Positions 1 to 29,260 of a stretch of 32,000 nt of DNA are shown piece after piece. The first letter of the stretch is position 1; each line of letters opens with the position of its first letter. The translations under genes were made by a program, and so were the position numbers. The notes under the pieces were generated by a model that saw only the letters and a list, made by a program, of their open reading frames with translations, made no database searches and was not told the DNA's origin. The stretch is from Desulfocapsa sulfexigens DSM 10523 (lineage in GTDB: Bacteria > Desulfobacterota > Desulfobulbia > Desulfobulbales > Desulfocapsaceae): positions 1,080,001-1,112,000 of the forward strand of contig NC_020304.1 of assembly GCF_000341395.1 (NCBI RefSeq), written 5' to 3'.

Positions 1-1
1 A

Positions 2-1264
2 AAGATTGCCGTTGTTCTCCTGGCAAACCAGAAATTCGGATTACTCTTTGATGACATCAAAGAAGTACTGCGGGTTGATGATTCCCTCCTTCTCCCGATC
101 CAACCTGCCTTACAATCCGAAGACTATATCATTTCCGATCTGATCACCCTGCGCGACCAGCATCGCACGCTTGAGGTTCTTGATTTAAAACGTCTTTTCC
201 AGGACCCAACCCTCTTGACCGATGGCATCGATAGCTCGTCAGCCATACCTCAATCCACCAAAACACGAACGTATTCCAGATATGTCATATTCTCCTCAGA
301 GGGAAGAGAATATGGTGTTCCGGTGGAAAACTCACGAGAACTCACCTTTATTACTGAAATTGACGATATGTTTAAGACCGACTGCCTCGAGGGTGCCCTG
401 CAGTTACGTGGCCGAACAATACCGGTTATGAACGCCAGTGCGCTCTTAAACGGTGGAACTGCAGTAAAAGCCGGGGAATTAAGTCGTATTCTGGTAATGA
501 CAACAGATGCGCTGAATTTTGGCATGATCATAGATCAAATTGTTGAAATTCTTACTGTCTGCAATGAAGAAATTCTTCAAATGCCATCTGGAGAAAATCA
601 ATCTGTAAGCGGTATATATGAGCCAACAACCGGTCGCAATATCATTCTTCTTGATGTGGCTAATCTCGTCACCAGCCAGATGGAACTTCTTAAATCCATG
701 GCCAGAATAAAGAGCGGTGACAACGACAACGATGTCGAAACACTCACAGTCGCAGAATCAAGACACCTCATTACTGAAAACTGCTACCTGATTTTTTCCA
801 TCGAAAAACACTTTGCTATAGAGTTGAAGGATGTCCAGGAAATCATCGAGCATGACATACTGATGCCAATTCCAGGAGCACGCGGATTCGACTCCAGAGT
901 ACTCAACCTCCGGGGACAGGTAATTCCGGTGGTTGATCTACGCCACTTCTACGACTATCCCGAACAAGAGGCTGCAGAGACATCCTCAAGGCTCATTATC
1001 TGTCGAGACGGCAAGCGTCTTGTTGCCCTACAGGTAGACAGCATTGTAACCATTTACAAACAGGAAGAATTCCACCCAACACCATCCCTGAAACCACAAC
1101 TGCAGCCTAAAAAAGACACCCTGGACCGGCTCATAGAATTCATCGGGGATCTCGGGGTTACAGAACATGTTCTGGTCATTAACACCCACAATCTAATCAA
1201 TAACTATCTGCACCAAAATATTACCACAGAAAACCCAATATCTAATCACCAGGAAACCAATTAA
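2..1264 (+). CDS. Multi-domain CheW-like chemotaxis coupling protein (5' end outside window; at least three CheW-like domains)
   Basis: Frame 2 is open from the window edge ([27 protein letters not shown]...) into the listed 215..1264 ORF, whose listed start is only an in-frame TTG. There are two complete CheW-type modules ([22 protein letters not shown]...[17 protein letters not shown] and [22 protein letters not shown]...[17 protein letters not shown]), plus the tail of a third at the left edge. Confidence 0.85.
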
Positions 1265-1302
1265 ATGCTTTTTCCGTTACCAGAAACTCTACAAGGAGGA
1301 GA

Positions 1303-4300
1303 ATGATGGCCACTTCAACAGCAAATCAAACAAATACAGAAAGGGCAGGTTTTGAACTGTTAACGGATCCAAGCTATCTGGTCAATAATGACATGACCAT
1401 CACCTGGGCCAACGATGCTTTCTTAAAAGAATTTCACCTCAAGAAAACTGAAGTTATCAACAAACTGACCTGTGAAGAGGCATGCCCCTCACATCTTTGT
1501 GGGACAAAAGACTGTCCCATCGTTAAATCAAAACGCATAAAAAAAGCAGCAGAAGGAGACGTATTCTACACAAATAATGGAAGCGCTGCCAACTGGTACC
1601 ACTCCAAAGCAACCCCCATGCCAGCACAGGAGGGCACTCTGGTCTCCATGACAGATATTACCAGGGTCAAGGAGATGGAAGCAAAACTCAGGCAGATGGA
1701 AACAGACCTCAATGTCATCCCAACACCCATCATGGAGATTGATGATAAATTCACCATCACCTTTATGAATCCGGCAGGTGCGGCTGTGGCCGGAAAGATG
1801 CCGGATGAAGTGATTGGAAGCAAATGCTACGATCTCTTCAAGACACCGCATTGTAAAACTGAAAAATGCGCCTGTGCCCGCGCTATGAAAACGGACTCGG
1901 TGGTCACCGACACAACCATCGCCCGCCCCGCTGACGGAATTATTGTGCCTATAAAATACACCGGAGCACCGATAAAAGACGCCAAGGGCAATATCAAAGG
2001 GGCCCTGGAATATATTTTAGATATTACTGAAGAAGCACAGCAAAAACAGGCAGCTGATGAAAAAATAAACAATCTCAATACCATCCCAACCCCCATAATG
2101 TCTATTGATACAGACTTCAATATCACCTTTATGAACCCGGCTGGTGCTGCCGTTGCAGGGATGACACCCGATGAAGTGGTTGGGAAAAAATGTTTCGATC
2201 TTTTCAAAACACCCCATTGTAAAACTAAAAAATGTGCCTGTGCCCGCGCCATGCAAACGGATTCTGTGGTTACTGATGTCACAATTGCACGGCCGGCTGA
2301 AGGGGTGATCGTTCCGATCAAATACACCGGGTCTCCCATTAAAGACGCCAAGGGCAATATCAAAGGGGCCCTGGAATATATTTTAGATATTACTGAAGAA
2401 GCACAGCAAAAACAGGCGGCTGATGAGAAAATAAACAATCTCAACACCATTCCTACACCCATCATGTCCATTGATACAGATTTCAATATCACTTTTATGA
2501 ACCCGGCTGGTGCTGCGGTGGCCGGTTTAACTCCAGACGAGGTGGTGGGCAAAAAATGTTTTGACCTCCTCAAAACACCCCATTGTAAAACTGAAAAATG
2601 TGCCTGCGCCCGCGCCATGAAAACCGATTCGGTTATCACAGAGCACACCATTGCACGGCCTGCTGAGGGTGTGATTGTTCCCATTAAATACACCGGGTCT
2701 CCTATTAAGGATGCTAAAGGCAACATTAAGGGCGCTCTGGAATATATCCTTGATGTCACAGAAGAAGCGGCCCAAAAACAGGCGGCGGAGGAAAAAATAA
2801 ACAATCTCAACACCATTCCTACGCCCATCATGTCCATTGATACAGATTTCAATATCACTTTTATGAACCCGGCTGGAGCAGCTGTTGTTGGCTTGACTCC
2901 AGATGAAGTGGTGGGCAAAAAATGTTTTGACCTTTTCAAAACACCTCACTGTCAAACTGAAAAATGTGCCTGCGCAAACGCCATGAAAACCGATTCAGTT
3001 ATTACAGAGCACACCATCGCACGACCGTCTGAAGGTGTTATTATTCCAATCAAATATACCGGTTCCCCTATTAAAGACGCTAAGGGCAATATCAAGGGAG
3101 CCCTGGAATACATTCTTGATGTTACCGAAGAGGCCAAGCAAAAGCAGGATGCCGATGAAAAAATTGAAAACCTCAATGCCATTCCCACTCCTATAATGTC
3201 CGTTGACACGGATTTCAACATCACCTTTATGAACCCCGCTGGTGCCGGAGTCGTCGGGTCAACCCCTGATCAGGTTATCGGTAAAAAATGCTACGACCTC
3301 TTCAAAACATCCCACTGCCAGACAGAAAAATGTGCGGTTGGCCGTTCCATGCGTGAAGACAGAATTATCCACGAAGAGACCATCGCCCGTCCTCAGGATG
3401 GTATTATAATTCCAATCAAGTATACCGGCGCACCTATTAAAGACGCCAAGGGAAACATTAAGGGAGCCCTTGAATTTGTCCTCGACATTACCGATGAGGC
3501 CAAACAACGCCAGGATGCCAATGAAAAAATAGAAAATCTCAACGTGATCCCCAATCCTATTTATGCCATGGATCTCGACTTCAACATCACCTATATCAAC
3601 CCTGCCGGAGCTGCAATGGCAGGATTAAGTGTGGAAGATGCCCTTGGCAAGAAGTGTCATGAACTCTTCTGCTCAGAAGGTTGTAACACGGAACAGTGTG
3701 GAGTCAGACAGGCTATCAGCGGGAATAAAACAATCTCAAATCAATATATTTCCCGAATCAACGGTATAGACGTTCCTGTCAAAGTAACCAGTGTATCCAT
3801 CAAAGATGCCAAAGGAAACGTCAAAGGCGGACTTGAGTATATGGTCGATGTGACCGCAGAGGCAAAGGTGGAACAGTTGATTAACAGCGCCTCCTCGGAA
3901 GTGGAAACACTGGTTTCCGACTCTCTTTCCAAAATGGCTGAAGCAACCGCAAATATGGCAGCCATGAATGAACTCATTGACAAGGAAGTTGCTTTACTGG
4001 ATGAATCCTCCACAACAATAGATGACATGCTTGAATCCGCTAAAGAGATGGTGGAACTGACAACTCAATCCAGTGAACTCGCACACGGAGTTTCCTTGGA
4101 TGCCGAACAGGGGAAAAAGGCCGGAGCAGATGCAGAAAAGAAAATGCTGGCCATCAACGCATCCATGGAAAGTTCCAACGACATGGTAGGTAACCTTGTC
4201 AATCAACTGGAAAAAATTGGTGGATTCGTAGATATCATCAAGGATATTGCTTCCCAGACAAACCTTCTCGCCTTTAATGCTGCAATTGAAGCAGCTCGTG

Positions 4301-4746
4301 CCGGAGATGCGGGACGAGGCTTTGCTGTGGTTGCAGATGAAATCCGAAAACTTGCAGAAAACTCTTCGAAATCAGCGGTGGATATTGCCAATATCGTGAA
4401 AAAGGTGGAACACGAATCCAAAGACACCATCGTTGCCATGAAAGACGGCATGAAAATGCTTGGAGATGGCAGTGAAGTTATTCAGACAGCTCTTGAAGCC
4501 ATGGACAAAATTTCCACCGGTATTGTTACCATATCTACTGCTGTTGAAGAACTGGACAAGAAGGCCGATATCCTCAGTGACAACGGCCAGGATGTTAAAG
4601 TTCAGATCACCAGTGTGACCAGATCCTCACAGGAAAACAAAGAATCCACGGAGGCTGTGAACTTCTCCATTGACGGTACCATTGAAGCACTGAACAAACT
4701 GGCAACGTCCAGCAAAGAGCTCAGCATCGCTGTAAGTGAAATGTAA
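1303..4746 (+). CDS. Soluble methyl-accepting chemotaxis protein with seven N-terminal Cys-rich PAS-like modules
   Basis: The RBS AAGGAGGAG lies just upstream of ATG 1303. The C-terminal ~270 aa contain the canonical MCP signalling hairpin ([49 protein letters not shown]). The N-terminal ~870 aa are seven ~122-aa modules ([24 protein letters not shown]...[30 protein letters not shown]). I see no hydrophobic TM or HAMP segment. Confidence 0.9.
1717..3912 (+). repeat. Six head-to-tail 366-bp (122-codon) tandem repeats inside the MCP gene
   Basis: Unit starts, read directly at the IPTPIM/IPNPIY codons, are 1717, 2083, 2449, 2815, 3181 and 3547, spaced exactly 366 nt. A 77-nt tract is identical between units (1975-2051 = 2341-2417). 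An 83-nt tract has a single mismatch (2428-2510 vs 2794-2876). Confidence 0.95.
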
Positions 4747-4795
4747 AGGCAATGAACGAACGATACTATTTTCTTTACCTACGGTAAGACTGAGT

Positions 4796-5365
4796 ATGAA
4801 TTTATACGGTGATAAATTATTTACCAGAAGACTCTCTCTTGCAAAAATTCAGGAAGAAAACCTTCCTATTGTTGTAGAGTGGAGTCTTTCTGCAACAGCA
4901 TGCGGTCCCTATCTGACACCGGAAAAGTTCAATCTTGAATGGATGCAGGCCCAGATCCAATCCGGTGTCCTCTGGAGCGACAGGGAGAAAATGTTCTTTG
5001 TGGAGACAAAAGAAACTGGCCGTCCAATCGGGACAGCTCACTACTGGAAGCCCCATGGTGGTGGAAACACCATCACCATGGCTGTGAAGGTTGCCCTGCC
5101 GGAGGAGCGGGGAAAGGGTTATGGTACGGAAATTCAGAAATTTCTCATCATGCACATCTTTGACCGGATGAATACTATCAAAGCCGTCGAAATGTATACC
5201 GATATCAACAATACTGCCCAGCAGCGTTGTCTCAGCAAACTGGGTTTTGAACTCATGGAATCACTTCTATATGACGACCAGCAGGAAAAAAGGACAGGGC
5301 ACCTTTACCGACTGACGGCAGATAAGTATCACAGCCATCCCATCTATCAATTCCATTATGAATAA
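4796..5365 (+). CDS. GNAT-family N-acetyltransferase (RimJ/RimL-like)
   Basis: Acetyl-CoA-binding signature EERGKGYGTEIQKFLIMHIF, and overall RimJ-like length from MNLYGDKLFTRRLSL. ATG 4796 is preferred over the in-frame GTG 4736, which overlaps the MCP stop. The stop overlaps the next gene's start (ATGAATAA at 5358-5365). Confidence 0.8.
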   Translation: MNLYGDKLFTRRLSLAKIQEENLPIVVEWSLSATACGPYLTPEKFNLEWMQAQIQSGVLWSDREKMFFVETKETGRPIGTAHYWKPHGGGNTITMAVKVALPEERGKGYGTEIQKFLIMHIFDRMNTIKAVEMYTDINNTAQQRCLSKLGFELMESLLYDDQQEKRTGHLYRLTADKYHSHPIYQFHYE

Positions 5366-6386
5366 GCTCGGACTCGTTTTTGATAACAGATACCTGCATC
5401 ATTCAATCTCAAATCCGACTCCGGAAAATCCTGATCGGCTGCGCAGTCTCTACCTAAAGCTGCAACAGAAGCTTACAGATGACTGTTTCAGCCATATTCG
5501 GCCGAGGGAGGCAACGGATGCTGAAATCACCGTTGCTCATTCACCCTTTTATATGGAACAGTTGCGTGAACATGCCATAAAAGCCGACCCCTATTCATAC
5601 GACAAAGACACCTACCTCATGGAAGAATCTCTTCCCACCGCCCGCCTGGCAGCAGGTGGTTGTTTTGCGCTCGCTAATCGCATTATGGAAGGTGACATTG
5701 ACTACGGCTTTGGTCTTATTCGCCCTCCAGGGCATCATGCAACTCCTGGCAGAGGTATGGGCTTCTGCATTTTCAACAACGTGGCTCTTACCGCAGAATA
5801 TCTTCGCAATACCTATGGTCTGCGCCGTATCCTGATCCTCGATTTTGACGTTCACCATGCCAACGGTACCCAGGAAATCTTCTACGAAACAGACGAGGTT
5901 ATGGTGTGTTCTATTCACCAAAAGGGCATTTTCCCCTTCACCGGAGAACGGGAAGAAGTGGGAAGCAGACTGGGCGAAGGCTTTACCATTAACATGCCGG
6001 TACACGCTCAGTTTGGTGACAGTGAGTACACCTATATCCTGGGACGAACCCTTCAGGGCCTGGTGGAACAGTACCTGCCACAATTTATTCTCGTTTCAGC
6101 AGGATTTGATAGCCACAAAGATGACAACATCAGCGGTACAAACCTGAGCACTCAGTGGTTTGCCACAATCACTCATATTTTACGGCGGCATGCAGCAGAC
6201 AGCTGTGACAATCGCCTCCTCTTTATTCTGGAAGGAGGATACAATCCGGTAAGTCTTGAAGAGTCAATTTTTGCTACAATCGATGCCCTGCTGCAGAACA
6301 ATTTTGACAGACCTGGTTTTTTACCCGTACCACGAGCCGATAAACTCCTCGACGGCCACCCCATGCGGCAATTCTGGACAATCTGA
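5358..6386 (+). CDS. Histone-deacetylase-family (AcuC / acetylpolyamine amidohydrolase-like) Zn-dependent deacetylase
   Basis: HDAC signatures IRPPGHHATPGRGMGFCIFNNVAL, LDFDVHHANGTQEIF and FILEGGYN (catalytic Tyr). Confidence 0.9.
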   Translation: MNKLGLVFDNRYLHHSISNPTPENPDRLRSLYLKLQQKLTDDCFSHIRPREATDAEITVAHSPFYMEQLREHAIKADPYSYDKDTYLMEESLPTARLAAGGCFALANRIMEGDIDYGFGLIRPPGHHATPGRGMGFCIFNNVALTAEYLRNTYGLRRILILDFDVHHANGTQEIFYETDEVMVCSIHQKGIFPFTGEREEVGSRLGEGFTINMPVHAQFGDSEYTYILGRTLQGLVEQYLPQFILVSAGFDSHKDDNISGTNLSTQWFATITHILRRHAADSCDNRLLFILEGGYNPVSLEESIFATIDALLQNNFDRPGFLPVPRADKLLDGHPMRQFWTI

Positions 6387-6399
6387 CAGGAGACATATC

Positions 6400-6843
6400 A
6401 TGACACTCAATCCCCCCGACCACGACCACCTGAAGACCCTTCTCCAGGAATGTCGACAATGCGGCACCTGTTGCAGAAAGTACAAAAAAGTACTTCTTCA
6501 GGGTGATGAACCAGAGTTTATCAAAAAGATGGGCGGTCATGTTGGTGTTGATGCCACCCTGCGTGAACTTCGGGAAAAACCTCTTGAACAGCTTATTGAA
6601 GAAAACAAACAGAAGGGAAAGGTCTACATGATCCACCCGGATGACAAGGGCTGTATCTTCCTTGAACGTCGCAATGGTCTTTACCGCTGTAAAATTTATA
6701 ATTACCGGCCTTTATCCTGCAAAGGATTTCGCTGCAATCTGGCCGATAACAGTTTTCTCTCACTCTTTGCAACTGATAGCATCCATCTACTCGGTCAGGA
6801 CCGTTTTGGCTTACCGCTGGACAAAAAAAATTCCCCCATCTAA
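6400..6843 (+). CDS. YkgJ-family (UPF0153, CxxCxxCC) Cys-cluster protein
   Basis: RBS AGGAGA (6388-6393) lies 6 nt before ATG 6400. N-terminal CRQCGTCC and C-terminal CIFLERRNGLYRCKIYNYRPLSCKGFRC match the YkgJ pattern. The longer 6256 start would overlap the deacetylase gene by about 130 nt. Confidence 0.75.
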   Translation: MTLNPPDHDHLKTLLQECRQCGTCCRKYKKVLLQGDEPEFIKKMGGHVGVDATLRELREKPLEQLIEENKQKGKVYMIHPDDKGCIFLERRNGLYRCKIYNYRPLSCKGFRCNLADNSFLSLFATDSIHLLGQDRFGLPLDKKNSPI

Positions 6844-7045
6844 GAAAGCACGAGAGACCCGCAGACTTCGAAAGAAGTTCTAATTTACAGGCGATCCGAT
6901 AAACTTTTGTTGATTTCTAGAGTACAAAAAAATCTATCCTTCCAGGCCATTCCTTTACAGTTAACTCTCCACCTCTAAACAGTAGTATTCAGTCATGGAA
7001 AGAGAGAGCAAGACGTGACAGTTCAATCCGTCACGCCCTTCACTC

Positions 7046-9430
7046 CTAGAAATCGACTGGTAGGGATGCCGCGGAGGCCTCATAGAAATAACGATTCAAA
7101 TCAAAGAGACCCGACTGTACCGGTTGCTCCCTGTTAAAACGCTCCTGGAACCAGTCATAATGCTCCCAGAAATTCGTATTGGCCCGGTTAATCCCGTATT
7201 TCCGAAAGCGCATGGACGCTTCCTCCTCACTCAGTTTACTGAGGTTCGCCAACAGATCAAAAAAGTCCGGTAAATCATCCTGTTGAATATCTATAAAATA
7301 ATTGGGGTAGGAACCGTAAAATCCCACAAGAAAATCCGCATTATCCTTTGTGGGATCCAGGGCTTTTTTTTCATTAAACATAAAGGTAACGTTATCATGC
7401 CAGCGATTAATGACTAGAGAAACCACAGCATCGGTGCCATCATTTTTGCGAATACGGACATAAACCACATTGGCATTAAAATCATCGACCAGTGAAAAAA
7501 ATTCGGTCCCGGGTTGAGAAACGGATCGAAAGGCCTGAAGATAATCGGCCATGGTTTCATATTGATCTGGCAGAGGAGGAAACTCCTTCCCTTTAGGGAG
7601 ATAGTTGACCCTGTCAAATTTGATACCGGTTTCCGGGAGGATATAATTATTGACAATCTCTTCTATAAATTCCCGTTTTGGATCATCGGTCTTGAATTGT
7701 ATTTTTGATGGTATACCTGCATCATAGTAGGTAACATTTTTGGGATCAACTCCCTTGTACCAGGATTCCATCATGGATCTACGCTGTTCCTCCGGCATGA
7801 ATCCGAGGAAATAACTCTCCCCTTCTTCCCGCAGGCCATCCATATATAAGCGAACAGCCAATTGGTGGCCCAACGTTCCATAGACATCAAACCCTGCAAC
7901 CAGGGCATAGTAGATCCGCTCTAACTGTGGATAATCCATAACCCACATTGTTCGAGGCAGATCACCAAGAACGCCTTTATGCACCGAGGCACTATCAAAG
8001 TGACGATACACCGTCAGGATGGGACTATCACTGGCCTTATTACCTTTCCAGATTGCATCATAGCCCTGTCCGTCATAATTATGGGTCATATAATAGTTCT
8101 GGCGCGCTTCGTAATATGCCGAAAGGGCCTTATCATACTTATTTCCAACCAAGTCTATTACCGGAAAACGGCTTCCCTTCTCAATGGGCATGATCAGGTT
8201 ATTTTTCTGCAATTTCAGGAAGCCCGGATACTGAACGCTCAAATCATGATCCGGGTCTTGAAACATGACCCAGAAGTGGTCATGGATAACATTTAAAGCA
8301 ATCTGACCACGACAAACCGGGCCACGAATAAACGTCATAATGATGTAATGAGAATTATCGAGAAGAAACTGGTAACGGGAACGAGGTGGAATCTGTCCAA
8401 AACTGTCAAATGGATTAGCGCTGCCAGATTCACTATAGCCTACGAGATGTGGCTCCTCCAGCCAGTCCGGATCGATAAATAAATCTGTATAACGGGCAAG
8501 TGCGGCATCATCAAAATCAAAGACCATATGTGTTTTATGGACAATGGTCGAATGTATTTTTCGAAAACGATAATAGAAGGTTTCTGTTCCAGGATCATCA
8601 TAAGGACGAACCGTATCAATAAGCTCGACTGGACTGCCTGGAGGAGTCGTGGAGCGAAGCAGTTCGTAATACTCATTGGTATCGGAATCAAATTTTATGT
8701 GAGCAAGAAAGAGATGCTCATAGAGATAACGGGCTGTCATTGCATACTTGGGATCCGGATTATTAAAAAATGTTTCCCATTTTACAATTTCAGCAGCATC
8801 CACCACCTTCGGCGAAGTCAACTCCTGCTGTTCAGCATCCGTTGGCCCCCTGGCACCCTGAGCCAGCCACCCCGCAATCAGCTCAAACTCCTGCTGTTTC
8901 AAGGGAGGGAAGCCGAATGGCATACCACGATTAGGATGTTTAGAGAGATAGCCATCGAGCTCTATGGAAGTCTCGGAACAGGTTAAATCTTCCGCCTCAG
9001 AACGGTATTCGCCCGTGGACTCTGGATTTTTCATCTTGTGATTTAAAATCTGGAGCATAAGCGAATTGTTCAGCCCACCTGAAACACTGCTTTCGGTCAC
9101 CGTATGAAAGTCCTTCTGCCGCCATTCCTCTGTGGTTTTAGCATCGACAAACAGCCGGGTTGGATCCATGGTGGTCAACCGGGTTGCGTTGTAGACAGAC
9201 TTCTTGCTCCCTCCTCGTTCAACCCCTTCGTAGGAGTTCAGCTTAAGCTGACAGGGAGAATTATAACAGGAGTGACATACGGCACAGCGTTTATCGAGTA
9301 TCGGCTTAATCTCATGAAGATAACTGACGGAATGGGTAGGGAGTTGCACCGCAATTGGATCTGGAGCCTTCTTAGCACAACCTGCAACAATTAAAAGAAG
9401 AAGAACAAAACTCACAGACAGGTTTTTCAT
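7046..9430 (-). CDS. cti: Fatty acid cis/trans isomerase (Cti family), lipoprotein-type signal, c-type haem motif
   Basis: N-terminus MKNLSVSFVLLLLIVAGCAKK has a lipobox (VAGC). The CAVCH haem-c motif sits in KRCAVCHSCYNSPCQLKLNSYEG, which I recognise as the conserved N-terminal Cti signature. The ~790-aa size fits the family. Confidence 0.7.
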   Translation of the reverse strand: MKNLSVSFVLLLLIVAGCAKKAPDPIAVQLPTHSVSYLHEIKPILDKRCAVCHSCYNSPCQLKLNSYEGVERGGSKKSVYNATRLTTMDPTRLFVDAKTTEEWRQKDFHTVTESSVSGGLNNSLMLQILNHKMKNPESTGEYRSEAEDLTCSETSIELDGYLSKHPNRGMPFGFPPLKQQEFELIAGWLAQGARGPTDAEQQELTSPKVVDAAEIVKWETFFNNPDPKYAMTARYLYEHLFLAHIKFDSDTNEYYELLRSTTPPGSPVELIDTVRPYDDPGTETFYYRFRKIHSTIVHKTHMVFDFDDAALARYTDLFIDPDWLEEPHLVGYSESGSANPFDSFGQIPPRSRYQFLLDNSHYIIMTFIRGPVCRGQIALNVIHDHFWVMFQDPDHDLSVQYPGFLKLQKNNLIMPIEKGSRFPVIDLVGNKYDKALSAYYEARQNYYMTHNYDGQGYDAIWKGNKASDSPILTVYRHFDSASVHKGVLGDLPRTMWVMDYPQLERIYYALVAGFDVYGTLGHQLAVRLYMDGLREEGESYFLGFMPEEQRRSMMESWYKGVDPKNVTYYDAGIPSKIQFKTDDPKREFIEEIVNNYILPETGIKFDRVNYLPKGKEFPPLPDQYETMADYLQAFRSVSQPGTEFFSLVDDFNANVVYVRIRKNDGTDAVVSLVINRWHDNVTFMFNEKKALDPTKDNADFLVGFYGSYPNYFIDIQQDDLPDFFDLLANLSKLSEEEASMRFRKYGINRANTNFWEHYDWFQERFNREQPVQSGLFDLNRYFYEASAASLPVDF

Positions 9431-21002: not shown

Positions 21003-22052
21003 TTACTTTCTTTTAGGGATTCGCACGGTAAAGACAGAACCAGTATTCAAACTGCTTTTCACAGAGACACGTCCTCCATGCCCTTGAACAATAGCTTTTA
21101 CAGCCGCAAGACCTAGTCCATGCCCCTTACTGCTTGATTTACTTTGATGAAAAGCATCAAAAATATATGGTAAGTCATCATCTGAAATTCCAAGCCCATT
21201 ATCTTTTATTTGAATGACCACATCTCTGTCATGCTCATTGACGCTGGTGACAATCTCTCCATTTTGATGAATAAATTTTATAGCGTTAGAAAACAGATTT
21301 TCGAACACTCGCTGCAGTTGTCTGCTGTCTGCTAGAATAGGCGATACAGAGTCATACTCCAAACGTATAGTACTTCCTTTTTCTGACGCCTGGGGCTGAC
21401 ATCTCAGAATGAGTTGATTAAGAAGTTCTGGTAAATCGATTTCTTCCAAATTAAGTCTTACCTTATCTGTGACTTGTCTTGAGAATTCCAAAAATTCCAA
21501 CACCAGAGACTCCAACTGTTCTCCAGAGTATTTAATAGTTTTACAATAGGTATCAAGCTTGTCTGCTGACATATCTTCATGGTGTTCCTGGATTCTTTTT
21601 GTCAGACCTAAAATGGCAACCAATGGAGACTTCATGTCATGGGCCAGCATATTTTGAAAGTTGTTTTTTTCGCGCTCTAAGGACTTTTCCCTGGAAAAAT
21701 CTTCAATTATCTCCAAAAAGCCGATGACTTCGCCATCATCATTTTTAATTGAAGCAGCACTTAGTCTTACCGGAATATGTTCATCATAACGGTTTATAAG
21801 TTCGGTCTCAACGCCGGAGGTCGGTACACCGGCTTCCTTTAAAGTTTGTAAAGGGCTTTCTGTGTTACGGCTTTTACTATGTAATATTTCAGAACATGAT
21901 TTTCCCATGACCTCTAAGGCGGAATACCCCGTTAAGTCCTCTGCTGGATTATTAAAAGAGGTGATATTAAAATCTGCATCCATGGTCACTACAGCAACAG
22001 GAATATTTTCTAAAATTAGATGGCAGAAGTGAGGACTAACATGGTCAGACAT
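21003..22052 (-). CDS. Cytoplasmic PAS-domain sensor histidine kinase
   Basis: N-terminal PAS (ILENIPVAVVTMDADFNITSFNNPAEDLTGY), H-box MLAHDMKSPL, N-box FENLFSNAIKF and G-boxes DNGLGI / GHGLGLAAVKAIV. No TM segment is present. Confidence 0.9.
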   Translation of the reverse strand: MSDHVSPHFCHLILENIPVAVVTMDADFNITSFNNPAEDLTGYSALEVMGKSCSEILHSKSRNTESPLQTLKEAGVPTSGVETELINRYDEHIPVRLSAASIKNDDGEVIGFLEIIEDFSREKSLEREKNNFQNMLAHDMKSPLVAILGLTKRIQEHHEDMSADKLDTYCKTIKYSGEQLESLVLEFLEFSRQVTDKVRLNLEEIDLPELLNQLILRCQPQASEKGSTIRLEYDSVSPILADSRQLQRVFENLFSNAIKFIHQNGEIVTSVNEHDRDVVIQIKDNGLGISDDDLPYIFDAFHQSKSSSKGHGLGLAAVKAIVQGHGGRVSVKSSLNTGSVFTVRIPKRK

Positions 22053-22140: not shown

Positions 22141-22818
22141 TTACTCCTTCGATTGCAGCTCTTCTGGCACCGGCTTCGGCTGCCAACGCTCTTCCAGCAC
22201 GGGCATATTTTTACTATGGGTTAAAATCACGATCTCGTCGCCGAAGCAAAATTCTGTTTTTTCATCGGCATGGGAAAACTTACCGTCACGGTAATAGCAG
22301 ATAACCTTCGCTTCGGCTGGTAATTTCAGATCTTTGGCTGCGACCGCATCTTTCTCTGTGGCAATCAAGGTGAAAAAACGTGCTTCATCCTTTATGACCG
22401 TTGAAAGTTCAATGATTTCACCACCACCTGCCATGTCCACCAGAAAACGACTGATGGTTCGGGAGGGATTGATCGTGTCCTTCAGACCCAATTCATGGCA
22501 GATAGTTTCGAACTGGGGATCGCCGATGCTTGTCACTATCCTTACAAAACCAAGGGAACGGCCAACGAGACTGGCGATAAGGTTGACCTGATCACTGTTG
22601 GTCAGACAAAACAGAAAATCTGTTTCCCCGGGATTGACTTCATGCAGGATATTCGGCAGACTGCCATCACCATGAAGAAAGCTGCAGTCCAGCTCTTCAG
22701 ACAATTCATCGATCATATCCTTATCAATCTCGATGATAACGACTTCATGACCCTTTCTGATCAGTTCCTTGGCAGTTTCGATACTTACTTTACCGGTTCC
22801 AATAAATACAATTCTCAT
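22141..22818 (-). CDS. trkA: TrkA/KtrA-type RCK (NAD-binding) regulatory subunit of a K+ transporter
   Basis: Rossmann start MRIVFIGTGKVSIETAKELIRKGHEVVIIE. ATG 22818 overlaps the trkH stop as ATGA (22818-22815). Confidence 0.85.
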   Translation of the reverse strand: MRIVFIGTGKVSIETAKELIRKGHEVVIIEIDKDMIDELSEELDCSFLHGDGSLPNILHEVNPGETDFLFCLTNSDQVNLIASLVGRSLGFVRIVTSIGDPQFETICHELGLKDTINPSRTISRFLVDMAGGGEIIELSTVIKDEARFFTLIATEKDAVAAKDLKLPAEAKVICYYRDGKFSHADEKTEFCFGDEIVILTHSKNMPVLEERWQPKPVPEELQSKE

Positions 22819-24323
22819 GTTTCCTCCATTCTTCTGCCAAACCACGTCCCGGGATAGATCATCATCAGCCAGGCGATGATTTCAAGTCTTCCCATCAGCA
22901 TGTCAACACACAAAACGCCTTTGAGCAGGGCTGGCAAGTTGGCATTTGTCAGTCCCACGGACAACCCAACCGTTCCCGTCGCCGAAACCACTTCAAACAG
23001 AGAGTCGAGCGGGCTGAACCCCATTACCACAAACGGCAGCCAGGAAAATAGAACAACTGCAACGAACAGCACAATAAGTAGAAGGGCCGCGTGAATATCT
23101 TGATCCCGCAACCGGCGGCCTACCAACCGATGCTCGATGACGGCGTGTCTCGGCAGACAGGTTCGTACCAGGATCAGCCGCAACACACTCACCGCAATCA
23201 ACAGCCGCAGCAGCTTGAAGCCACCGGAGGTCGATCCAAAACCGCCACCCACCAGCATCGAGCTGATCAGAACCAGTTTTGAGCCTGCATCGAGCTGATC
23301 ACAGGAAATTGAAGAAAAACCAGCGGTTGTCTGCGCAGAAAAAGCGAGCAGTGGTGCGTGATGGAGTATCTGGGTCCATGCCATGTCGGTACTGAGTCGC
23401 ATTGCAGCACCAATTGTCAGCGAAACGATCAGAATAACGATGATGATGGCCCGCATCTGAAGAAATTCAACGCCAACGCGCCATTTTTCTTTAAACATCC
23501 CATACCAGAACGCAAGCGGGATAGCCCCGGCAAGGCAGAGCAGACTAATCCACACCTGAGCGGGCCAGCCTAAGATCGCGAGGCTGGTGTCATTCGGGGC
23601 AAAGCCTCCGGTCGAAACCGCCGCAAAGGTATACAGAACCCCGTCGAAACACCTCATGCCCACGGCAAGCGAACCGATGATACCGAGGACGGTCAAAATG
23701 ATATAGACTTTCAGGACGCGCCGTGCGTGGGCCCGTGTACCACCGACAAGATCATCACTTTCCGCCTCGGTGACGGCAAGACCCTTTGCATCCAGACCCG
23801 GCTGGATGACGAGCGCCAGGGAAAGAACAACGATACCCAGCCCTCCATACCACTGCATCCAGGCGCGAGCAAAAAGAAATGTCGGCGGCGCGCCAACAAG
23901 CGTCGCCTTCGTGCTCAGTCCAGTGGTCGTCACCCCGGAGACGGCTTCAAAGAAGGCATCGAAAAAGCCAAGTCCCGAGCCCATCATCGGGTAGGACATC
24001 ACCAACGGCGTAAAGAAAAATATCAATGCGACCAACATCATGCCTTCATTGGCCTGTACCCTGGCAGGAGTCCGCAGCCGGGACAGGCTGGCCCCGAGGA
24101 CCGCGAGTCCGCAAATAACCACGCCATACCGCAGGCTGATGTCGATGTCGCCACAGATTACCGACACCACAAACGGCGCCAGCGACAGCGTAGCGAGCAC
24201 TAGGGACATCTGGCCGAAATACTTGCAGACCACACGAAACCGAACCGCGTATCTGAGTTCTGTTGCCTGTTGTACCACCAACGAATCTTCTCCCCTTTTA
24301 AAACCCGTAGTGCAGAACGACAC
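22815..24323 (-). CDS. trkH: TrkH/KtrB-family cation (K+) transporter membrane subunit
   Basis: A polytopic membrane protein with repeated pore-loop-like TTAGF / STGG / SGG / ATGTVGLS segments typical of TrkH. The listed start is a GTG. TTG 24281 or GTG 24278, preceded by AGGGGAG, are plausible true starts. Confidence 0.85.
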   Translation of the reverse strand: MSFCTTGFKRGEDSLVVQQATELRYAVRFRVVCKYFGQMSLVLATLSLAPFVVSVICGDIDISLRYGVVICGLAVLGASLSRLRTPARVQANEGMMLVALIFFFTPLVMSYPMMGSGLGFFDAFFEAVSGVTTTGLSTKATLVGAPPTFLFARAWMQWYGGLGIVVLSLALVIQPGLDAKGLAVTEAESDDLVGGTRAHARRVLKVYIILTVLGIIGSLAVGMRCFDGVLYTFAAVSTGGFAPNDTSLAILGWPAQVWISLLCLAGAIPLAFWYGMFKEKWRVGVEFLQMRAIIIVILIVSLTIGAAMRLSTDMAWTQILHHAPLLAFSAQTTAGFSSISCDQLDAGSKLVLISSMLVGGGFGSTSGGFKLLRLLIAVSVLRLILVRTCLPRHAVIEHRLVGRRLRDQDIHAALLLIVLFVAVVLFSWLPFVVMGFSPLDSLFEVVSATGTVGLSVGLTNANLPALLKGVLCVDMLMGRLEIIAWLMMIYPGTWFGRRMEET

Positions 24324-24383: not shown

Positions 24384-25277
24384 TCATTTTTTTTCTTTGC
24401 TCAGTAATTCATAACCGGCGACGACATCGAACAACTCTTCATCTATGGTACTCTGCCGCAGACGATGGAAGGTCCGGCTCAAATCCTCCAGCAGTTCATC
24501 AATATTTTTTTCGGCACGTTGCATCGCGGCCAGACGGCTGGCATTTTCAGCAGCCAGTGATTCAGCGCAAGCCTTGAAGAGCGATACGAAAAGATATTCA
24601 CGGATAAGCGCCGAGAGTGTTGTCTCGCCACCTGCCAGGATATCGGGAAGATTATCAGACGGCCAGCTGACTTCGGTCAGGTGGTGGCGCCATTGCTTGT
24701 CAAGCGGCAGCAACCGTTGATTAACGGACTCATACAACGCCCCGGACTGGGGACGGTTGTGAAAGAGGTAGACCTGCCCGATCTCGCCTTTCCGCCGATG
24801 CTTTTCAAACTCGGTAAGAATCTGACCGACAAGCGGCGTGATGGCTGTGACCGAATTCGGTACCACGAATGTTCCCACCGGTGGCATTCCGGCATCCTTC
24901 AGACGCACGTCAACACGCTCGCCAACCGCCCAGATCCTTTTCTCCCCTGGCAAAGCACTCAGCGCATCCATGGTAAACTCCACCAGCGCCTCATTGAATT
25001 TGCCGACAAGTCCCTGGTCCGAGCCAAAAATGATTGCTCCAATCACACCTTTGTCTATTTGTTCGGCCTGATCCACACCGTAGTCCAGCCCGGCTCCTTG
25101 CTGGAAGTAGGCAACCAACCCCAGTTCCACAGTACGATCATAATCTATCAGGGCACTCACAGCGTTTTCGTACTGCCCCCTGTTTGAGGCAGCTAACGCT
25201 TTCATGGTCCGGACTACGGATCCAAGTTTGCCGGCACCGCTCATCTTACGGCGCAAATTTCCCAGTGTCTCGCTCAT
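24384..25277 (-). CDS. atpG: N-type F-ATPase gamma subunit
   Basis: Gamma-like N-terminus ([25 protein letters not shown]) and C-terminal helix ([17 protein letters not shown]). It is the last gene of the atpDCQRBEFAG order, with an ATGA overlap with atpA. Confidence 0.85.
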
Positions 25278-26809
25278 AGTTCCGTCTGAAAAACTGTAAG
25301 CGCATTGCCGGCGACGCGGAGAACCGCCTCGCGATCCTCGTCCGTCAAGGTGTCAGCCGAGAAAAATCGGCGGCTGACTTCCACCGGAATCTCAGCCGCG
25401 GCCTCACGCAGGGCACCTTCCACTTTTGGCATCATATCGAGCGGTATGGTGTCCAGGAGTCCATCGAGCAGGGCCAGCAGCACGGCTATCTGCTCAGGCA
25501 CGGATACCGGAGCGAACTCCGGCTGCTTGAGACAGGCACGGATTCGTTGGCCATGGGCGATAATTTTCCGGGTATGCTCGTCAAGCCGGGCGCCGAACCT
25601 GGCAAAGGTTTCCAACTCCTCGAACTGCGCATAGGCAAGCTTCAAGGACCCGGCCACCGCGCGATAAGCCGCGAGTTGTGCCTTGCCCCCGACCCGCGAC
25701 ACCGATTTGCCAACATCAACTGCGGGCAGAATTCCCAGTTCAAAAAGCGTCGGCGAGAGATAGATCTGACCGTCGGTAATGGAAATAAGATTGGTTGGAA
25801 TATACGCGGAGATATTCTGCGCCTCGGTCTCGATGATGGGCAACGCGGTGAGCGAGCCGCCACCGAGTTCACTGCGCAAGTGAGTTGCACGCTCCAGGAG
25901 CCGCGAATGGATATAGAAGATGTCGCCGGGAAAGGCCTCTCGGCCGGGTGGTCGACGCAGCAGAAGAGAGAGTTCACGGTAGGACCTGGCGTGGTGGGTG
26001 AGATCGTCATATACGATAAGCACGTCGCGGCCCTGCTCCATAAAATACTCGGCGATGCTGGTGGCGACATAGGGCGCGATATAGGTGAGGCCTGGCGGAT
26101 CGTTGCCCTCTGTTACCACGACGATGGTGTATTCCATGGCGCCTTTTTCGCTGAGATCGGCGACGACCTTGGCCACGGCCGAGGCCCGCTGGCCGATGGC
26201 GCAATAGATGCAGACCATGTCCTGATCACGCTGGTTCAGGATGGTGTCGATGGCAATAGCTGTCTTGCCTGTTTGCCGGTCGCCGAGAATCAACTCGCGT
26301 TGGCCACGACCGATGGGAATAAGGGCATCGATGACCTTGATGCCGGTTTGCAGCGGCATGGTGACAGGAGCCCGGTCCATTATGGGTGTCGCATCCCTTT
26401 CGATGGGCAGACGCCGAGTGCAGGACACCGGCCCCTTGCCATCCAACGGACGACCAAGCGGGTCGATAACGCGGCCCAGCAGTGCATCACCCACAGCCAC
26501 ATCCATGACCCTTCCTGTGCGCTCGACTTCATCTCCCGTGTGCAGGAGCCTGTATTCGCCCAGAAGGACGACACCGATGTCGTCCTCGTCGATATTAAAC
26601 GCAATACCAAACAAGTCGCCAGGGAACTTCACAAGTTCCTCAAAACCGACGCCGGGAAGACCATTAACTCTTGCAATGCCGGTGGCGACACCGGTGATCG
26701 TGCCCACCTCCCGGGGTGTCAGTTGCGGCGTGAATGCTTCCCGTACCTGGCGAATTTCGGTAAAGGCGCTGTCGAAAACGTTTCCGAGGCTCTCCGGTTC
26801 GATATTCAT
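25274..26809 (-). CDS. atpA: N-type F-ATPase alpha subunit
   Basis: Walker A GDRQTGKT. Alpha-type motifs include [45 protein letters not shown]. Confidence 0.95.
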
Positions 26810-27627
26810 TGGTTCCTTGTTTCAGGCATACGTTCTACAGGTTCAGAGTCGGTCTGGGGTGCAGGTTTGTTCTTCTCTTGCAAAAGTTCGGCAACACCCT
26901 GTTCCAGCGACGCCAGATAATCGGCGATGCTCCACGCCACCTTTTGTCCGTCCGTGGTCAATTCAATACCGCTAATCACGTTCGGCGCGGTCTCGAATCG
27001 GACATTGACTTCAGCCGAAAAGGTTTCGTTGAGTCCATTTTGTATTGCCGCGCGATGCTCCGCAGTCAGGTCAAAGGCACTGCGCACCACTACTGGGTCA
27101 GACGCCGTCTTGAAGGTCTCGGCAAAGCCAGCCTTGTGTTCCCCGTCTAAGTCCCGTAACCGACGAACAAAAACATCCACCATCTGCTCTTCCAGATTCG
27201 TTCCGGCAAGATCGGTCAACGCCTTTCGAGCGATGGCAAAAACTTCCTGCTGTGTCCGACGACTGATTGCCTGATGGAGGTCGTGTTCTTCGTCTCTTAA
27301 CGCTTCCTGCCTTTTTGTACTCAAAGCAACGGCGGCATGCCGCGCTTCATTGAGAAGCCGTTGACGCTCAGCCTGCGCCTCGTCTGTCGCCTTGCTCAGA
27401 AGTTCGTTGCGCTGCTGGTCGAATTCCTCGTTTTTGTGCTTGAACTCATCACGTTCCCGCAGAGCTTCGACTTTTTTTGCATCGGCGTCCGCGAGTTCCG
27501 CGGCGATTCGTTCTTCCCGTGCATCGATGGCATTGAGGATAGGTTTGTAGAGGAAACGCTTCATCAACCACACCAGGATGAGAAAATTGAGCACCTGTGC
27601 CAGAATAGTAAACCAATCGATCAACAT
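26806..27627 (-). CDS. atpF: N-type F-ATPase b subunit (long form with delta-like C-terminal region)
   Basis: A single N-terminal TM ([15 protein letters not shown]), followed by a long charged coiled coil. The C-terminus ([26 protein letters not shown]) resembles the end of delta/OSCP subunits. No separate delta gene lies between b and alpha. Confidence 0.8.
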
Positions 27628-27631
27628 GGAT

Positions 27632-27913
27632 TTATTTCCCCGCGGCCTGGGCGATAAAGTGGTTCCAGAAAGGGTTGGCGAAGATAAGAATCATCGAAAC
27701 CACGAAGCAGTAAATGGCCGTGGACTCAACCATCGCCAAACCAACGAAGAGCGTCCGGGTGATAGTGGGAGCGGCGTCGGGTTGCTGGGCCAGTGAACTG
27801 AGCGCCGTTGACACCGCACGGCCTTCACCCAGAGCAGGTCCTAAACATCCAAACCCGGTGGTGATACCGGCGGTGAAGATTGATACAATCGCTATAATCG
27901 TCATACTATCCAT
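27632..27913 (-). CDS. atpE: N-type F-ATPase c subunit with a complete Na+-ligand set (two-carboxylate type)
   Basis: A two-helix hairpin protein with helix-1 GPALGEG and helix-2 LAMVESTAIYCFV. By eye it aligns with the Ilyobacter tartaricus c subunit (GPGVGQG / AVAESTGIYSLV). Confidence 0.9.
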   Translation of the reverse strand: MDSMTIIAIVSIFTAGITTGFGCLGPALGEGRAVSTALSSLAQQPDAAPTITRTLFVGLAMVESTAIYCFVVSMILIFANPFWNHFIAQAAGK

Positions 27914-27934
27914 AGGATCTCCTTTGAAAATACT

Positions 27935-28630: not shown

Positions 28631-28937
28631 GGCCAGCCTCCCCTTCCAATGCGGTCGGCTTCTCATCCACCCGGGTGAACCGTGTCACTAGAAAGCGTGC
28701 CATGGCAAATCCGAGGAGACACAGCAGTAGCCTCTGCCAATGACCGCCCCCAACAAAATAAAATCCAGCCACGGTAAGGCCTATCCGCAGCAGCATACTG
28801 CCGAGGAACCAGGCCGCCGGCCGCTTGGAGGCAAGACCCTTGCGAACCGTCCACCAAAGACCACCGAAAAACATCACACCGAGTAAAACACCCGCCACCA
28901 ACGCCAGCAGCAGTGTCAGCATTTCATTCATTATCAT
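28620..28937 (-). CDS. atpR: N-ATPase accessory membrane protein AtpR
   Basis: The small hydrophobic protein MIMNEMLTLLLALVAGVLLGVMFFGGLWWTVRKG carries the FFGGLWWT motif I associate with AtpR. AGGAGG lies 5 nt upstream of ATG 28937. Its position, second after epsilon, fits the N-ATPase operon order. Confidence 0.75.
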   Translation of the reverse strand: MIMNEMLTLLLALVAGVLLGVMFFGGLWWTVRKGLASKRPAAWFLGSMLLRIGLTVAGFYFVGGGHWQRLLLCLLGFAMARFLVTRFTRVDEKPTALEGEAGHAA

Positions 28938-29260
28938 TAGTATCCTCCTGTTCTTCCTGCATTGCCTTGTCTTCTCTGGAGACCCAGTGCCAGGCATTAT
29001 AGCAGCCCATGGCAAGTCCGGCGACCAACAGGGCCAGGGTCCAGGAGCGGCCGCCCGGATAGTGCTTGTCCAGCCAGAGACCAAGTGCTGCGCCGAGCAA
29101 TGTCGGAATCGCCACCGACCAGCCGATAAGCCCCATCATGCCCAGGCCGAACCAGACGGTATGGGTGACGTTACGCCGCGCCTTAAGCTTGCGCTTTTCC
29201 TTTATGCCGACCTCCCGGCTGAACGTTGTCCGGCCTTGGGTGCTTTTTGTTTCCTGCTCC

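Follow-up and report, generated by a model that had tools for sequence, protein, structure and literature searches.

A soluble chemoreceptor of Desulfocapsa sulfexigens with seven PAS modules that share a cysteine triad with the redox regulator OrpR

The gene at nucleotides 1303-4746 of the 32,000-nucleotide stretch of Desulfocapsa sulfexigens DSM 10523 DNA analysed here (the window) encodes a soluble methyl-accepting chemotaxis protein (MCP), in which seven aligned PAS modules have in common a cysteine triad, C-x8-C-x4-C. On sequence comparison, homology links the module to the PAS domain of the redox regulator OrpR, and its invariant cysteines match C52, C61 and C65 of that protein. By analogy to OrpR, the balance tips slightly towards a cytoplasmic receptor for redox or O2 taxis with multiple Fe-S clusters and an OrpR-type Cys-triad PAS input, although the three-cysteine site could equally bind zinc or act by thiol chemistry.

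The protein comprises 1147 amino acids (WP_153304823.1 / AGF77525.1). Pfam identified seven PAS stretches (PAS_4/PAS_9) and an MCPsignal domain at residues 925-1106 (E 6.6e-37), with no HAMP match at E<0.01. There is no transmembrane segment, the 19-residue Kyte-Doolittle mean peaking at 1.09. The sequence contains the hairpin tip motif of the MCP signalling domain ([35 protein letters not shown]), and the hairpin extends over about 40 heptads by our arithmetic. A signalling domain with its hairpin tip, the absence of transmembrane segments and an adjacent multi-CheW gene place the protein in the cytoplasmic class of MCPs. Six PAS modules succeed one another at a pitch of exactly 122 residues in the module alignment, and the seventh, at the N-terminus, is divergent (21% identity). 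Tandem Repeats Finder detected a period of 366 nt at the gene, with approximately 5 copies and 80% matches. A first-pass annotation of this DNA, made from the letters, had described a 1147-residue MCP with neither transmembrane nor HAMP segments, seven consecutive PAS modules of about 122 residues and a 366-nt repeat, all in agreement with these results. The features of the gene are as follows, with C1, C2 and C3 denoting the triad cysteines in order.

1303-4746, + strand: soluble MCP gene, 1147 aa (ORF, Pfam, exact-sequence look-up).
1342-1707, + strand: divergent N-terminal Cys-PAS module, aa 14-135 (HMM envelope, module alignment); Cys57/61/66/71 at nt 1471-1515, + strand, with C57, C66 and C71 as the triad and the extra Cys at C1+4.
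1699-2064, + strand: PAS module 2 (unit 1), aa 133-254 (HMM envelope, module alignment); Cys175/184/189/191 at nt 1825-1875, + strand (Cys positions).
2065-2430, + strand: PAS module 3 (unit 2), aa 255-376 (module alignment, BLASTP against the OrpR-like PAS); Cys297/306/311/313 at nt 2191-2241, + strand (Cys positions).
2431-2796, + strand: PAS module 4 (unit 3), aa 377-498 (Cys positions, module alignment); Cys419/428/433/435 at nt 2557-2607, + strand.
2797-3162, + strand: PAS module 5 (unit 4), aa 499-620 (Cys positions, module alignment); Cys541/550/555/557 at nt 2923-2973, + strand.
3163-3528, + strand: PAS module 6 (unit 5), aa 621-742 (Cys positions, module alignment); Cys663/672/677, the triad only, at nt 3289-3333, + strand.
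3529-3894, + strand: PAS module 7 (unit 6), aa 743-864 (Cys positions, module alignment); Cys785/790/794/799 at nt 3655-3699, + strand, with 785, 794 and 799 as the triad.
3898-4746, + strand: MCP kinase-control hairpin, ~282 aa, directly after the last PAS without HAMP (Pfam MCPsignal at nt 4075-4620).

All 27 cysteines of the protein lie in the seven clusters, at the same position of the PAS module, and none is found elsewhere. The alignment places an acidic residue (D/E) at C1+2 in each of the seven. The fourth cysteine varies: units 1-4 have it at C3+2, unit 6 at C1+5 and the N-terminal module at C1+4, and unit 5 lacks it. The first-pass annotation had placed a cluster at one position in every module and had listed the patterns of units 1-6, with that of unit 1 at nt 1825-1875, and both the alignment and the Cys positions bear this out. 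Its pattern for the N-terminal module, C-x3-C-x5-C-x4-C, was wrong; the Cys positions give C-x3-C-x4-C-x4-C.

The orthologous set covers 79 related loci and contains 396 modules. C43, C52 and C57 are present in 392, 393 and 394 of these modules, respectively, the adjacent positions vary, and almost no cysteine occurs outside the cluster. C59, the fourth cysteine of the C-x-C arrangement, and His51, which precedes C2, occur in 68% and 77%, respectively, of the orthologous modules; in diverse modules the figures are 42% and 50%. The conserved core thus consists of three cysteines rather than four. The acidic residue at C1+2 occurs in 367 of the 396 orthologous and 183 of 258 diverse modules (71%); whether D/E45 compensates for an absent fourth cysteine was tested, and no clean pattern emerged. 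Among 24 modules at 29-55% identity, P10 and the three cysteines are the only invariant columns. The first-module type, C43/47/52/57, recurs in 58 orthologous loci.

An exhaustive HMM search was carried out over representatives of clusters at 50% identity. The scan of the 148 best representatives identified triad modules (n=258) in 119, so that at least 119 such clusters lie among the best 150 matches. The 440 representatives at E<=1e-30 are an upper bound for the size of the family, because triad-less multi-PAS proteins reach this threshold too. Modules scoring at least ~90 bits all contain the triad. Above 56 bits, just three modules lack it, two of them being gapped fragments at the triad columns. 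A few family members have a C2-C3 spacing of x3. Conservation of the triad is near-absolute in the 396 orthologous modules and in distant relatives, and is not due to chance. The homologue survey proposed with the first-pass annotation shows the cysteines conserved as a triad (at least 99% of the 396 modules) and MCP output predominant, with transmembrane MCPs, hybrid kinases and a KaiC-PAS protein also represented. The hosts that have names all come from lineages of anaerobes (Desulfobulbales, Desulfuromonadales, Desulfobacterales and Chloroflexi).

The repeats themselves raise the question of whether the array is an assembly artefact or a curiosity of recent duplication with no special function, its cysteines being duplication passengers. 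The central modules are 89-99% identical within one species, the copy number ranges from 4 to 8, and many metagenomic homologues are broken fragments, as such an origin would predict. However, the genome is finished, the exact-sequence cluster of WP_153304823.1 holds three more members of 1146-1147 aa, and the terminal modules retain positional orthology across genera. The triad is also invariant in distant receptors of one to three modules that lie outside this duplication, which effectively refutes the duplication explanation and leaves it a negligible probability. Homologue searches that used a 121-aa unit and, later, a profile of 24 sequences yielded nothing but short, often frameshifted fragments of <220 aa, which were uninformative about architectures.

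Structure prediction and profile comparison of a single unit had also been proposed with the first-pass annotation. The AlphaFold2 (AF2) model of the module has a pLDDT of 80 and a canonical PAS topology, with the cysteines on the E-alpha/loop/F-alpha face, which is the cofactor-binding face of LOV, FixL and Aer-type PAS domains. The top Foldseek matches of the model in the PDB are all PAS/LOV folds (probability 1.00), including the Aer PAS 8dik; they are generic PAS folds (VqmA, DosP, LOV, MmoS, Aer, NifL), with no metal-cluster PAS among them. Similarly, a PDB sequence search with one unit returned only generic LOV/PAS matches (E >=0.004). A LOV-type flavin PAS is ruled out, as the cysteine alone aligns (GKKCFDLF versus GRNCRFLQ) and the flavin-binding flanks of GxNCRFLQ are absent.

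The closest characterised relative is OrpR (DVU2106) of D. vulgaris Hildenborough, a sigma54 activator whose PAS domain senses redox and holds a redox-sensitive [4Fe-4S] cluster (Fievet et al. 2021, PMC8359166). Redox sensing by OrpR requires the PAS domain and C52, C61 and C65 (PMC8359166), which are arranged as C-x8-C-x3-C with D/E at C1+2; these cysteines were assigned as ligands on the basis of a triple mutant together with a model rather than a structure, and D/E54 is the candidate fourth ligand. The published OrpR-box palindrome served to locate an OrpR orthologue on metagenome contigs. Of its 120 matches the majority were chance occurrences; the orthologue has C52, E54, C61 and C65 as published, and its gene adjoins both an OrpR palindrome and an orange-protein-type gene. 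In BLASTP, unit 2 and the PAS domain of this orthologue are 28% identical across 109 aa (E 1e-17) and the three cysteines are in register; hhalign gave a probability of 99.35% (E 6e-21). Against two module HMMs, the OrpR-like PAS scored 59 and 81 bits, compared with at most 45 and 67 bits for generic PAS controls, a moderate margin that suggests an OrpR link falling within a broad PAS clade. Membership of the OrpR family proper (PAS, sigma54 AAA+ and HTH_8 domains, beside orp operons) is ruled out, since the output domain is MCPsignal and a sigma54 domain is absent.

The module had been described as unplaceable in any named family. This holds insofar as neither Pfam nor NCBIfam has a model that separates the triad PAS from generic PAS, and fails in that BLASTP and hhalign identify OrpR as a characterised relative. 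The earlier proposal of a metal or Fe-S centre in every module of a cytoplasmic redox or O2 sensor is now partly supported; it is better grounded because the module shows homology to the OrpR PAS with the three cysteines aligned, and OrpR itself was found by experiment to hold a cluster.

The genes surrounding the receptor were also examined, with the following features.

2-1264, + strand: multi-domain CheW scaffold gene, its 5' part beyond the left edge of the window (stop-free from nt 2 to 1264; Pfam, two CheW domains in the window).
4736-5365, + strand: GNAT acetyltransferase gene, overlapping the MCP stop (Pfam; downstream synteny in 61 matches).
5358-6386, + strand: histone-deacetylase-family (Hist_deacetyl) gene, overlapping the end of the GNAT gene (Pfam; synteny in 58 loci).
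6400-6843, + strand: CxxCxxCC (YkgJ-type, putative Zn/Fe-chelating) protein gene (Pfam; synteny in at least 27 loci).

The CheW scaffold gene lies directly upstream of the MCP gene in ~60 loci, and its orthologue at one related locus (L019) has three CheW domains (Pfam). The listed ORF of the CxxCxxCC gene starts at 6256; translation probably begins at M49 (nt 6400). A promoter and terminator scan of nt 1-7100 gave fewer promoter-like sites than the shuffled expectation.

The conserved neighbour encoding a CxxCxxCC 'zinc- or iron-chelating' protein is one of three observations that would suit a different role for the cysteines, in which Zn2+, bound by the triad and a variable fourth ligand, has a structural or regulatory part and does no more than stabilise the long E-alpha/F-alpha loop, with the PAS pockets sensing a small metabolite or acting as dimerisation or spacer modules. 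Three-Cys sites commonly bind Zn, and C-x8-C-x4-C resembles CCCH-finger spacings recovered in a literature search for the motif. Structural Zn sites, however, normally keep four ligands, and only three are universal in the triad modules. A CCCH zinc finger (C-x7-8-C-x4-5-C-x3-H) is itself ruled out, as 389 of 396 modules have R, Q or K at C3+4, none has the defining His there, and the motif lies inside a PAS fold. The sole characterised homologue, OrpR, holds an Fe-S cluster rather than Zn (PMC8359166), and the hosts named so far are anaerobes. OrpR likewise has just three universal ligands, and this number would suit a [4Fe-4S]/[3Fe-4S] site containing labile iron better than structural Zn; we regard the zinc explanation as rather doubtful.

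The cysteines of a module are packed within 15-17 residues, and D. sulfexigens disproportionates elemental sulfur, thiosulfate and sulfite (PMC3739170). Both facts would accommodate a metal-free thiol switch, operating through disulfide, persulfide or polysulfide formation and directing taxis up or down gradients of S0/polysulfide or oxidants. In histidine kinases, a sister type of the module keeps cysteines at columns 43 and 57 only, which would suit a disulfide as well. Such a switch leaves the strict conservation of three cysteines unexplained, because a disulfide needs only two. The triad moreover occurs in many non-disproportionating lineages (Desulfosudis, Chloroflexi, Geopsychrobacteraceae), and the characterised relative OrpR uses a cluster (PMC8359166). 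A thiol switch therefore appears quite improbable.

Most likely, the three invariant cysteines of each module bind an iron-sulfur cluster where the cofactor pocket of the PAS domain opens. C1 lies where helix E-alpha begins, in the place that the photoactive cysteine takes in LOV domains, C2 in the E-alpha/F-alpha loop and C3 just ahead of helix F-alpha. By analogy to OrpR, the cluster may be a [4Fe-4S]2+ center whose variable fourth ligand is a cysteine (at C3+2 or C1+4/5) or the acidic side chain at C1+2. A higher intracellular redox potential, or the entry of O2 or reactive oxygen species, would oxidise or degrade it from [4Fe-4S] through [3Fe-4S] to the apo form. Presumably, the ensuing rearrangement of E-alpha/F-alpha would pass along the inter-module helical linkers to the HAMP-less kinase-control hairpin which, scaffolded by the multi-CheW protein encoded upstream, would modulate CheA so that the cell returns to reduced zones. 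A series of seven sensors whose fourth ligands are of three kinds may provide high sensitivity, a graded response or both. D. sulfexigens inhabits oxic-anoxic interfaces (PMC3739170); this habitat and the anaerobic lineages of the named hosts were counted in favour of an Fe-S redox/O2 receptor. Counted against the Fe-S reading were the x4 spacing where OrpR has x3, the presence of D/E at C1+2 in only 71% of distant modules, the moderate margin of the OrpR-like PAS over some generic PAS domains and the mutant- and model-based assignment of the OrpR ligands. A more far-reaching version, which we consider unlikely, would make the triad PAS the input of a large unrecognised class of anaerobe Fe-S chemoreceptors, with non-redundant clusters whose fourth ligands (Cys at C3+2, none, Cys at C1+4/5) confer differing potentials or stabilities, forming a multi-threshold 'redox ladder', and with the GNAT/deacetylase pair adapting or resetting the receptor by reversible lysine acetylation.

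The known cofactors of redox and O2 chemoreceptors are FAD, haem b, haem c, hemerythrin and zinc (CZB). In the searchable literature, we found no chemoreceptor with an iron-sulfur cluster and no Fe-S PAS chemoreceptor, and searches for the motif spacing (CX8CX4C and similar) recovered only unrelated proteins. The sole Fe-S PAS mentioned in the 2023 PAS classification paper is of the NreB type. An Fe-S PAS is already known from OrpR, and an Fe-S PAS chemoreceptor is probably a receptor type so far uncharacterised. The comparison presented here links a characterised Fe-S PAS to a large family annotated merely as generic PAS. If cluster binding holds true, it would establish the means by which many anaerobes (Desulfobulbales, Desulfuromonadales, Desulfobacterales and some Chloroflexi) navigate redox gradients, extend the PAS repertoire by one class of cofactor and make a naturally multivalent Fe-S sensor available for study. 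Experimental access is easy, as a single 122-aa unit is expressible.

Several known sensors share parts of this design. Aer, Aer2 and AerC are PAS energy-taxis and O2 chemoreceptors that bind FAD or haem b, Aer2 and AerC being soluble or having a cytoplasmic PAS. The present receptor resembles them in joining a PAS input to an MCP signalling domain and in the proposed sensing of intracellular redox or O2 for taxis, and differs in its proposed Fe-S cofactor, the lack of a HAMP after the PAS and the seven PAS modules in series. Among sulfate reducers, Desulfovibrio DcrA is a chemoreceptor with a periplasmic CxxCH haem-c site and DcrH a hemerythrin-domain chemoreceptor; these are likewise metal-cofactor O2/redox chemoreceptors. 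In contrast, Pfam and the Cys positions reveal neither a hemerythrin domain nor a haem-c motif in the MCP. With no CxxC pair there can be no CxxCH, which rules out a DcrA-type haem-c PAS and agrees with the first-pass annotation, as does the departure from the paired CxxC sites of NreB. The cysteine spacing of NreB is C-x2-C-x11-C-x2-C, whereas no x2 spacing, and hence no CxxC pair, occurs anywhere in the MCP, so that an NreB-type Fe-S PAS is ruled out. NreB of Staphylococcus is summarised as an oxygen-sensor kinase with a [4Fe-4S] PAS (Mullner et al. 2008, cited in PMC10468136); its PAS is also cytoplasmic and senses O2 via a labile Cys-bound Fe-S cluster, but its output is a histidine kinase and it falls in a separate PAS cluster of the 2023 classification. 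OrpR differs in having x3 rather than x4 between C2 and C3 (a one-residue gap), an AAA+/HTH output instead of an MCP kinase-control hairpin, and one module where the MCP has seven in tandem, four with an added fourth cysteine (C-x-C). Its cluster was demonstrated by experiment; that of the MCP is a proposed one. The two share the PAS fold, three conserved cysteines at equivalent structural positions, the x8 spacing between C1 and C2 and the acidic residue at C1+2, and both are cytoplasmic proteins of anaerobic Desulfobacterota in which only three Cys ligands are universal.

Translation of the ORF at 1303-4746 (+) yields a protein of 1147 aa, in which Pfam detects seven PAS stretches (PAS_4, E 3e-114; PAS_9, E 2e-103), one MCPsignal domain (aa 925-1106) and no HAMP match at E<0.01. 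The receptor lacks a membrane segment, as its 19-residue Kyte-Doolittle hydropathy reaches a maximum of only 1.09. The ORF, Pfam and hydropathy results uphold the first-pass annotation, which had described a seven-PAS MCP free of TM and HAMP segments. Tandem Repeats Finder resolved a 366-nt repeat unit in the gene, present in about five copies with ~80% matches. Exact-sequence cluster look-up identified the protein as WP_153304823.1 / AGF77525.1 of Desulfocapsa sulfexigens, annotated to date solely as 'PAS domain-containing protein' or 'methyl-accepting chemotaxis sensory transducer with Pas/Pac sensor'. The genome paper of this organism, an inhabitant of oxic-anoxic interfaces, names the adjacent CheW gene along with ten transmembrane MCPs and leaves the soluble receptor undiscussed (PMC3739170).

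The 27 cysteines of the receptor fall into seven clusters: residues 57/61/66/71 in the N-terminal module, 175/184/189/191 in unit 1 and thrice more at +122 in units 2-4, 663/672/677 in unit 5 and 785/790/794/799 in unit 6. No Cys lies outside these clusters in all 1147 aa. The Cys patterns and coordinates reported previously were correct for every module save the N-terminal one, which reads C-x3-C-x4-C-x4-C rather than C-x3-C-x5-C-x4-C. Alignment of the seven modules shows that their common feature is a triad, C-x8-C-x4-C (Cys1, Cys2 and Cys3), accompanied by an acidic residue two positions after Cys1 (C1+2) in 7/7 modules. Units 1-4 have their fourth Cys at C3+2, unit 6 has it at C1+5 and the N-terminal module at C1+4; unit 5 has none.

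The AF2 model of unit 1 (pLDDT 80) exhibits the canonical order of PAS elements. E-alpha begins with Cys1, the loop after this helix contains Cys2 and Cys3, and Cys4 falls within the first turn of F-alpha. In sequence alignment, Cys1 coincides with the photoactive Cys of LOV domains, which together with the model places the cluster on the PAS face used for cofactor binding by LOV, FixL and Aer. A Foldseek search with the model returned generic PAS structures exclusively, and no solved structure for the triad subfamily surfaced.

A scan of species-representative genomes recovered 79 loci, the majority from Desulfobulbales (Desulfocapsa, Desulfopila, Desulforhopalus, Desulfobulbus, Desulfogranum and Desulfofustis) and the remainder from Geopsychrobacteraceae, Desulfuromusa, Desulfobacterales, Desulfosudis oleivorans and one Chloroflexi MAG. 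The orthologues contain 4 to 8 modules each. The survey of Cys conservation advocated in the first-pass annotation found Cys at the triad columns in 392, 393 and 394 of 396 orthologous modules. Also frequent are Thr at C2+2 (388/396), D/E at C1+2 (367/396), His preceding Cys2 (306/396) and Cys at C3+2 (269/396); Cys at C1+4 (60/396) is almost confined to first modules, and outside the cluster Cys is nearly lacking. Contigs L062, L063 and L075 are labelled as Cyanobacteria or Rickettsiales MAGs, yet carry Desulfobulbales-type triad-PAS MCPs, and are probably mis-binned; L063 also has GNAT and HDAC-like neighbours, and L062 has GNAT, at which the contig stops.

Identity matrices revealed positional orthology between genera for the first two and the last two modules, and 89-99% identity among the central modules inside each species (window 2065-3528 and loci L015, L019, L054 and L073), from which it follows that it is the middle of the array that grows, shrinks or becomes homogenised. 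The sequences thus point to concerted evolution or recent expansion there. Almost every metagenomic homologue of the repeat region (P0001-P0023) is a short, truncated or frameshifted fragment. Evidently, the 366-nt repeats break short-read assemblies and leave the family under-represented as full-length proteins.

Genes flanking the receptor gene.
2-1264 (+), multi-domain CheW gene, upstream
4736-6843 (+), GNAT acetyltransferase, histone-deacetylase-family and CxxCxxCC genes, downstream, ends overlapping or abutting

The CheW gene is truncated by the left window edge, as no stop codon occurs back to that edge; its orthologue in locus L019 (3998-5530) encodes three CheW domains in a single protein, an unusual scaffold of a kind that may build cytoplasmic receptor arrays. 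The neighbourhood order recurs in ~58 of loci L001-L074, and the cheW-mcp-GNAT-HDAC order is kept out to Geopsychrobacteraceae and two deeper Thermodesulfobacteriota MAGs (L073/L074), which hints at a reversible acetylation system linked to the receptor. Neither CheA nor CheY is encoded within the 32,000-nt window, the remainder of which comprises housekeeping genes unrelated to the receptor. Among these, ATP synthase genes at 24384-31106 (-) are ordered beta, small ORFs, b/delta-like, alpha, gamma, which we take to resemble an N-type (Na+) ATPase operon; next come TrkH/TrkA genes at 22141-24323. This strict anaerobe also encodes a full-length fatty-acid cis/trans isomerase with an N-terminal CxxCH motif (7046-9430 (-); CTI, E 2.5e-266).

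When 1.84 billion representatives were searched exhaustively with a profile, 440 proteins reached E<=1e-30, an upper bound for triad proteins because triad-less multi-PAS proteins score likewise. Among the best 148 representatives, 119 contain a total of 258 triad modules, typically two or three per protein, so that seven is at the high end. Triad modules have a median score of 102 bits versus 23 bits for non-triad PAS of the same proteins, and every module at ~90 bits or above has the triad. The spacing is 8/4 in 233 of the 258 and 8/3 in a few. The survey of outputs that had also been suggested showed that MCPs predominate (tip motif in 71 of the best representatives by regular expression; MCPsignal in 5/9 further proteins examined with Pfam), some being transmembrane MCPs with 4HB, HBM or Cache sensors and HAMP; one protein is a hybrid histidine kinase and another a KaiC-PAS protein. 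In an alignment of 24 diverse modules (29-55% identity), Pro10 and the three Cys are the only invariant columns. The fourth Cys occurs in 42% and D/E45 in 71% of diverse modules, with no compensating pattern between them. A structural or regulatory Zn site at these cysteines is an unlikely reading, a metal-free thiol/persulfide switch is less likely still, and a repeat array without function is exceedingly improbable.

Large multi-PAS histidine kinases (P0075, P0078, P0121, P0135, P0158, P0144 and others) contain a sister module in which Cys occupies columns 43 and 57 alone (motifs CKC 17, CEC 7, CDC 2), perhaps a two-Cys version of the site. The PAS (GKSCSEILHSKSRNTESP) of a PAS-HisKA-HATPase kinase at 21003-22052 (-) is closely related to the triad module, reaches 45-67 bits with the module HMMs and keeps Cys1 alone.

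Pfam and NCBIfam models do not set the triad subfamily apart from generic PAS; for the receptor itself NCBIfam gave only the generic 'sensory_box' domain plus partial hits below threshold. The earlier view that the module fits no named family holds for these databases and fails with respect to a characterised homologue, the PAS domain of OrpR, a sigma54 activator of Desulfovibrio vulgaris. OrpR carries a [4Fe-4S]2+ cluster, which mild oxidants turn into [3Fe-4S]1+; redox sensing requires its N-terminal PAS domain and the conserved C52, C61 and C65, which are 5-8 A apart in the modelled protein, and D/E54 was proposed as a possible fourth ligand (PMC8359166). For comparison, an OrpR orthologue was found via the published OrpR-box palindrome GGGCGYRTTTTGCGCCC in metagenome contigs. 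The scan gave two loci, L147 and L168, each encoding a PAS-Sigma54_activat-HTH_8 protein whose C52/E54/C61/C65 match the residues published for OrpR. In L147, the regulator gene, whose protein cluster is named sigma-54 regulator, Humidesulfovibrio, adjoins both the palindrome and a gene of orange-protein type (Nitro_FeMo-Co). The orthologue aligns with unit 2 at 28% identity over 109 residues (E 1e-17), with all three Cys paired and a single-residue gap between Cys2 and Cys3, and profile comparison of the triad module with its PAS gave 99.35% probability. Module HMMs score OrpR-like PAS at 59 and 81 bits versus 45 and 67 or less for ordinary PAS of the same genomes, a margin that is real but moderate. 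Judged from sequence, the triad modules and OrpR PAS belong to a broader PAS clade that includes the kinase PAS of 21003-22052 (-).

By analogy, the receptor is best explained, and somewhat more probably than not, as a cytoplasmic redox or O2 taxis receptor with an OrpR-like Fe-S cluster in each PAS and a relay to the kinase-control hairpin. The Cys triad of each PAS would hold the cluster; upon its oxidation or loss, a signal would pass along the inter-module helices to the HAMP-less hairpin, which the multi-CheW protein would scaffold. Three conserved ligands, a characterised homologue and hosts that are anaerobes favour an Fe-S site over the rival explanations; confidence is moderate, as the cluster is predicted and the spacing differs from that of OrpR by one residue.

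No Fe-S PAS chemoreceptor and no account of the triad subfamily turned up in a literature search, and a 2023 PAS classification paper mentions the NreB type (nine domains) as the sole Fe-S PAS, with OrpR absent. OrpR has C-x8-C-x3-C and the window modules have C-x8-C-x4-C, one residue apart, both with an acidic residue at C1+2. With OrpR as its one characterised precedent, the sensor type is not categorically new.
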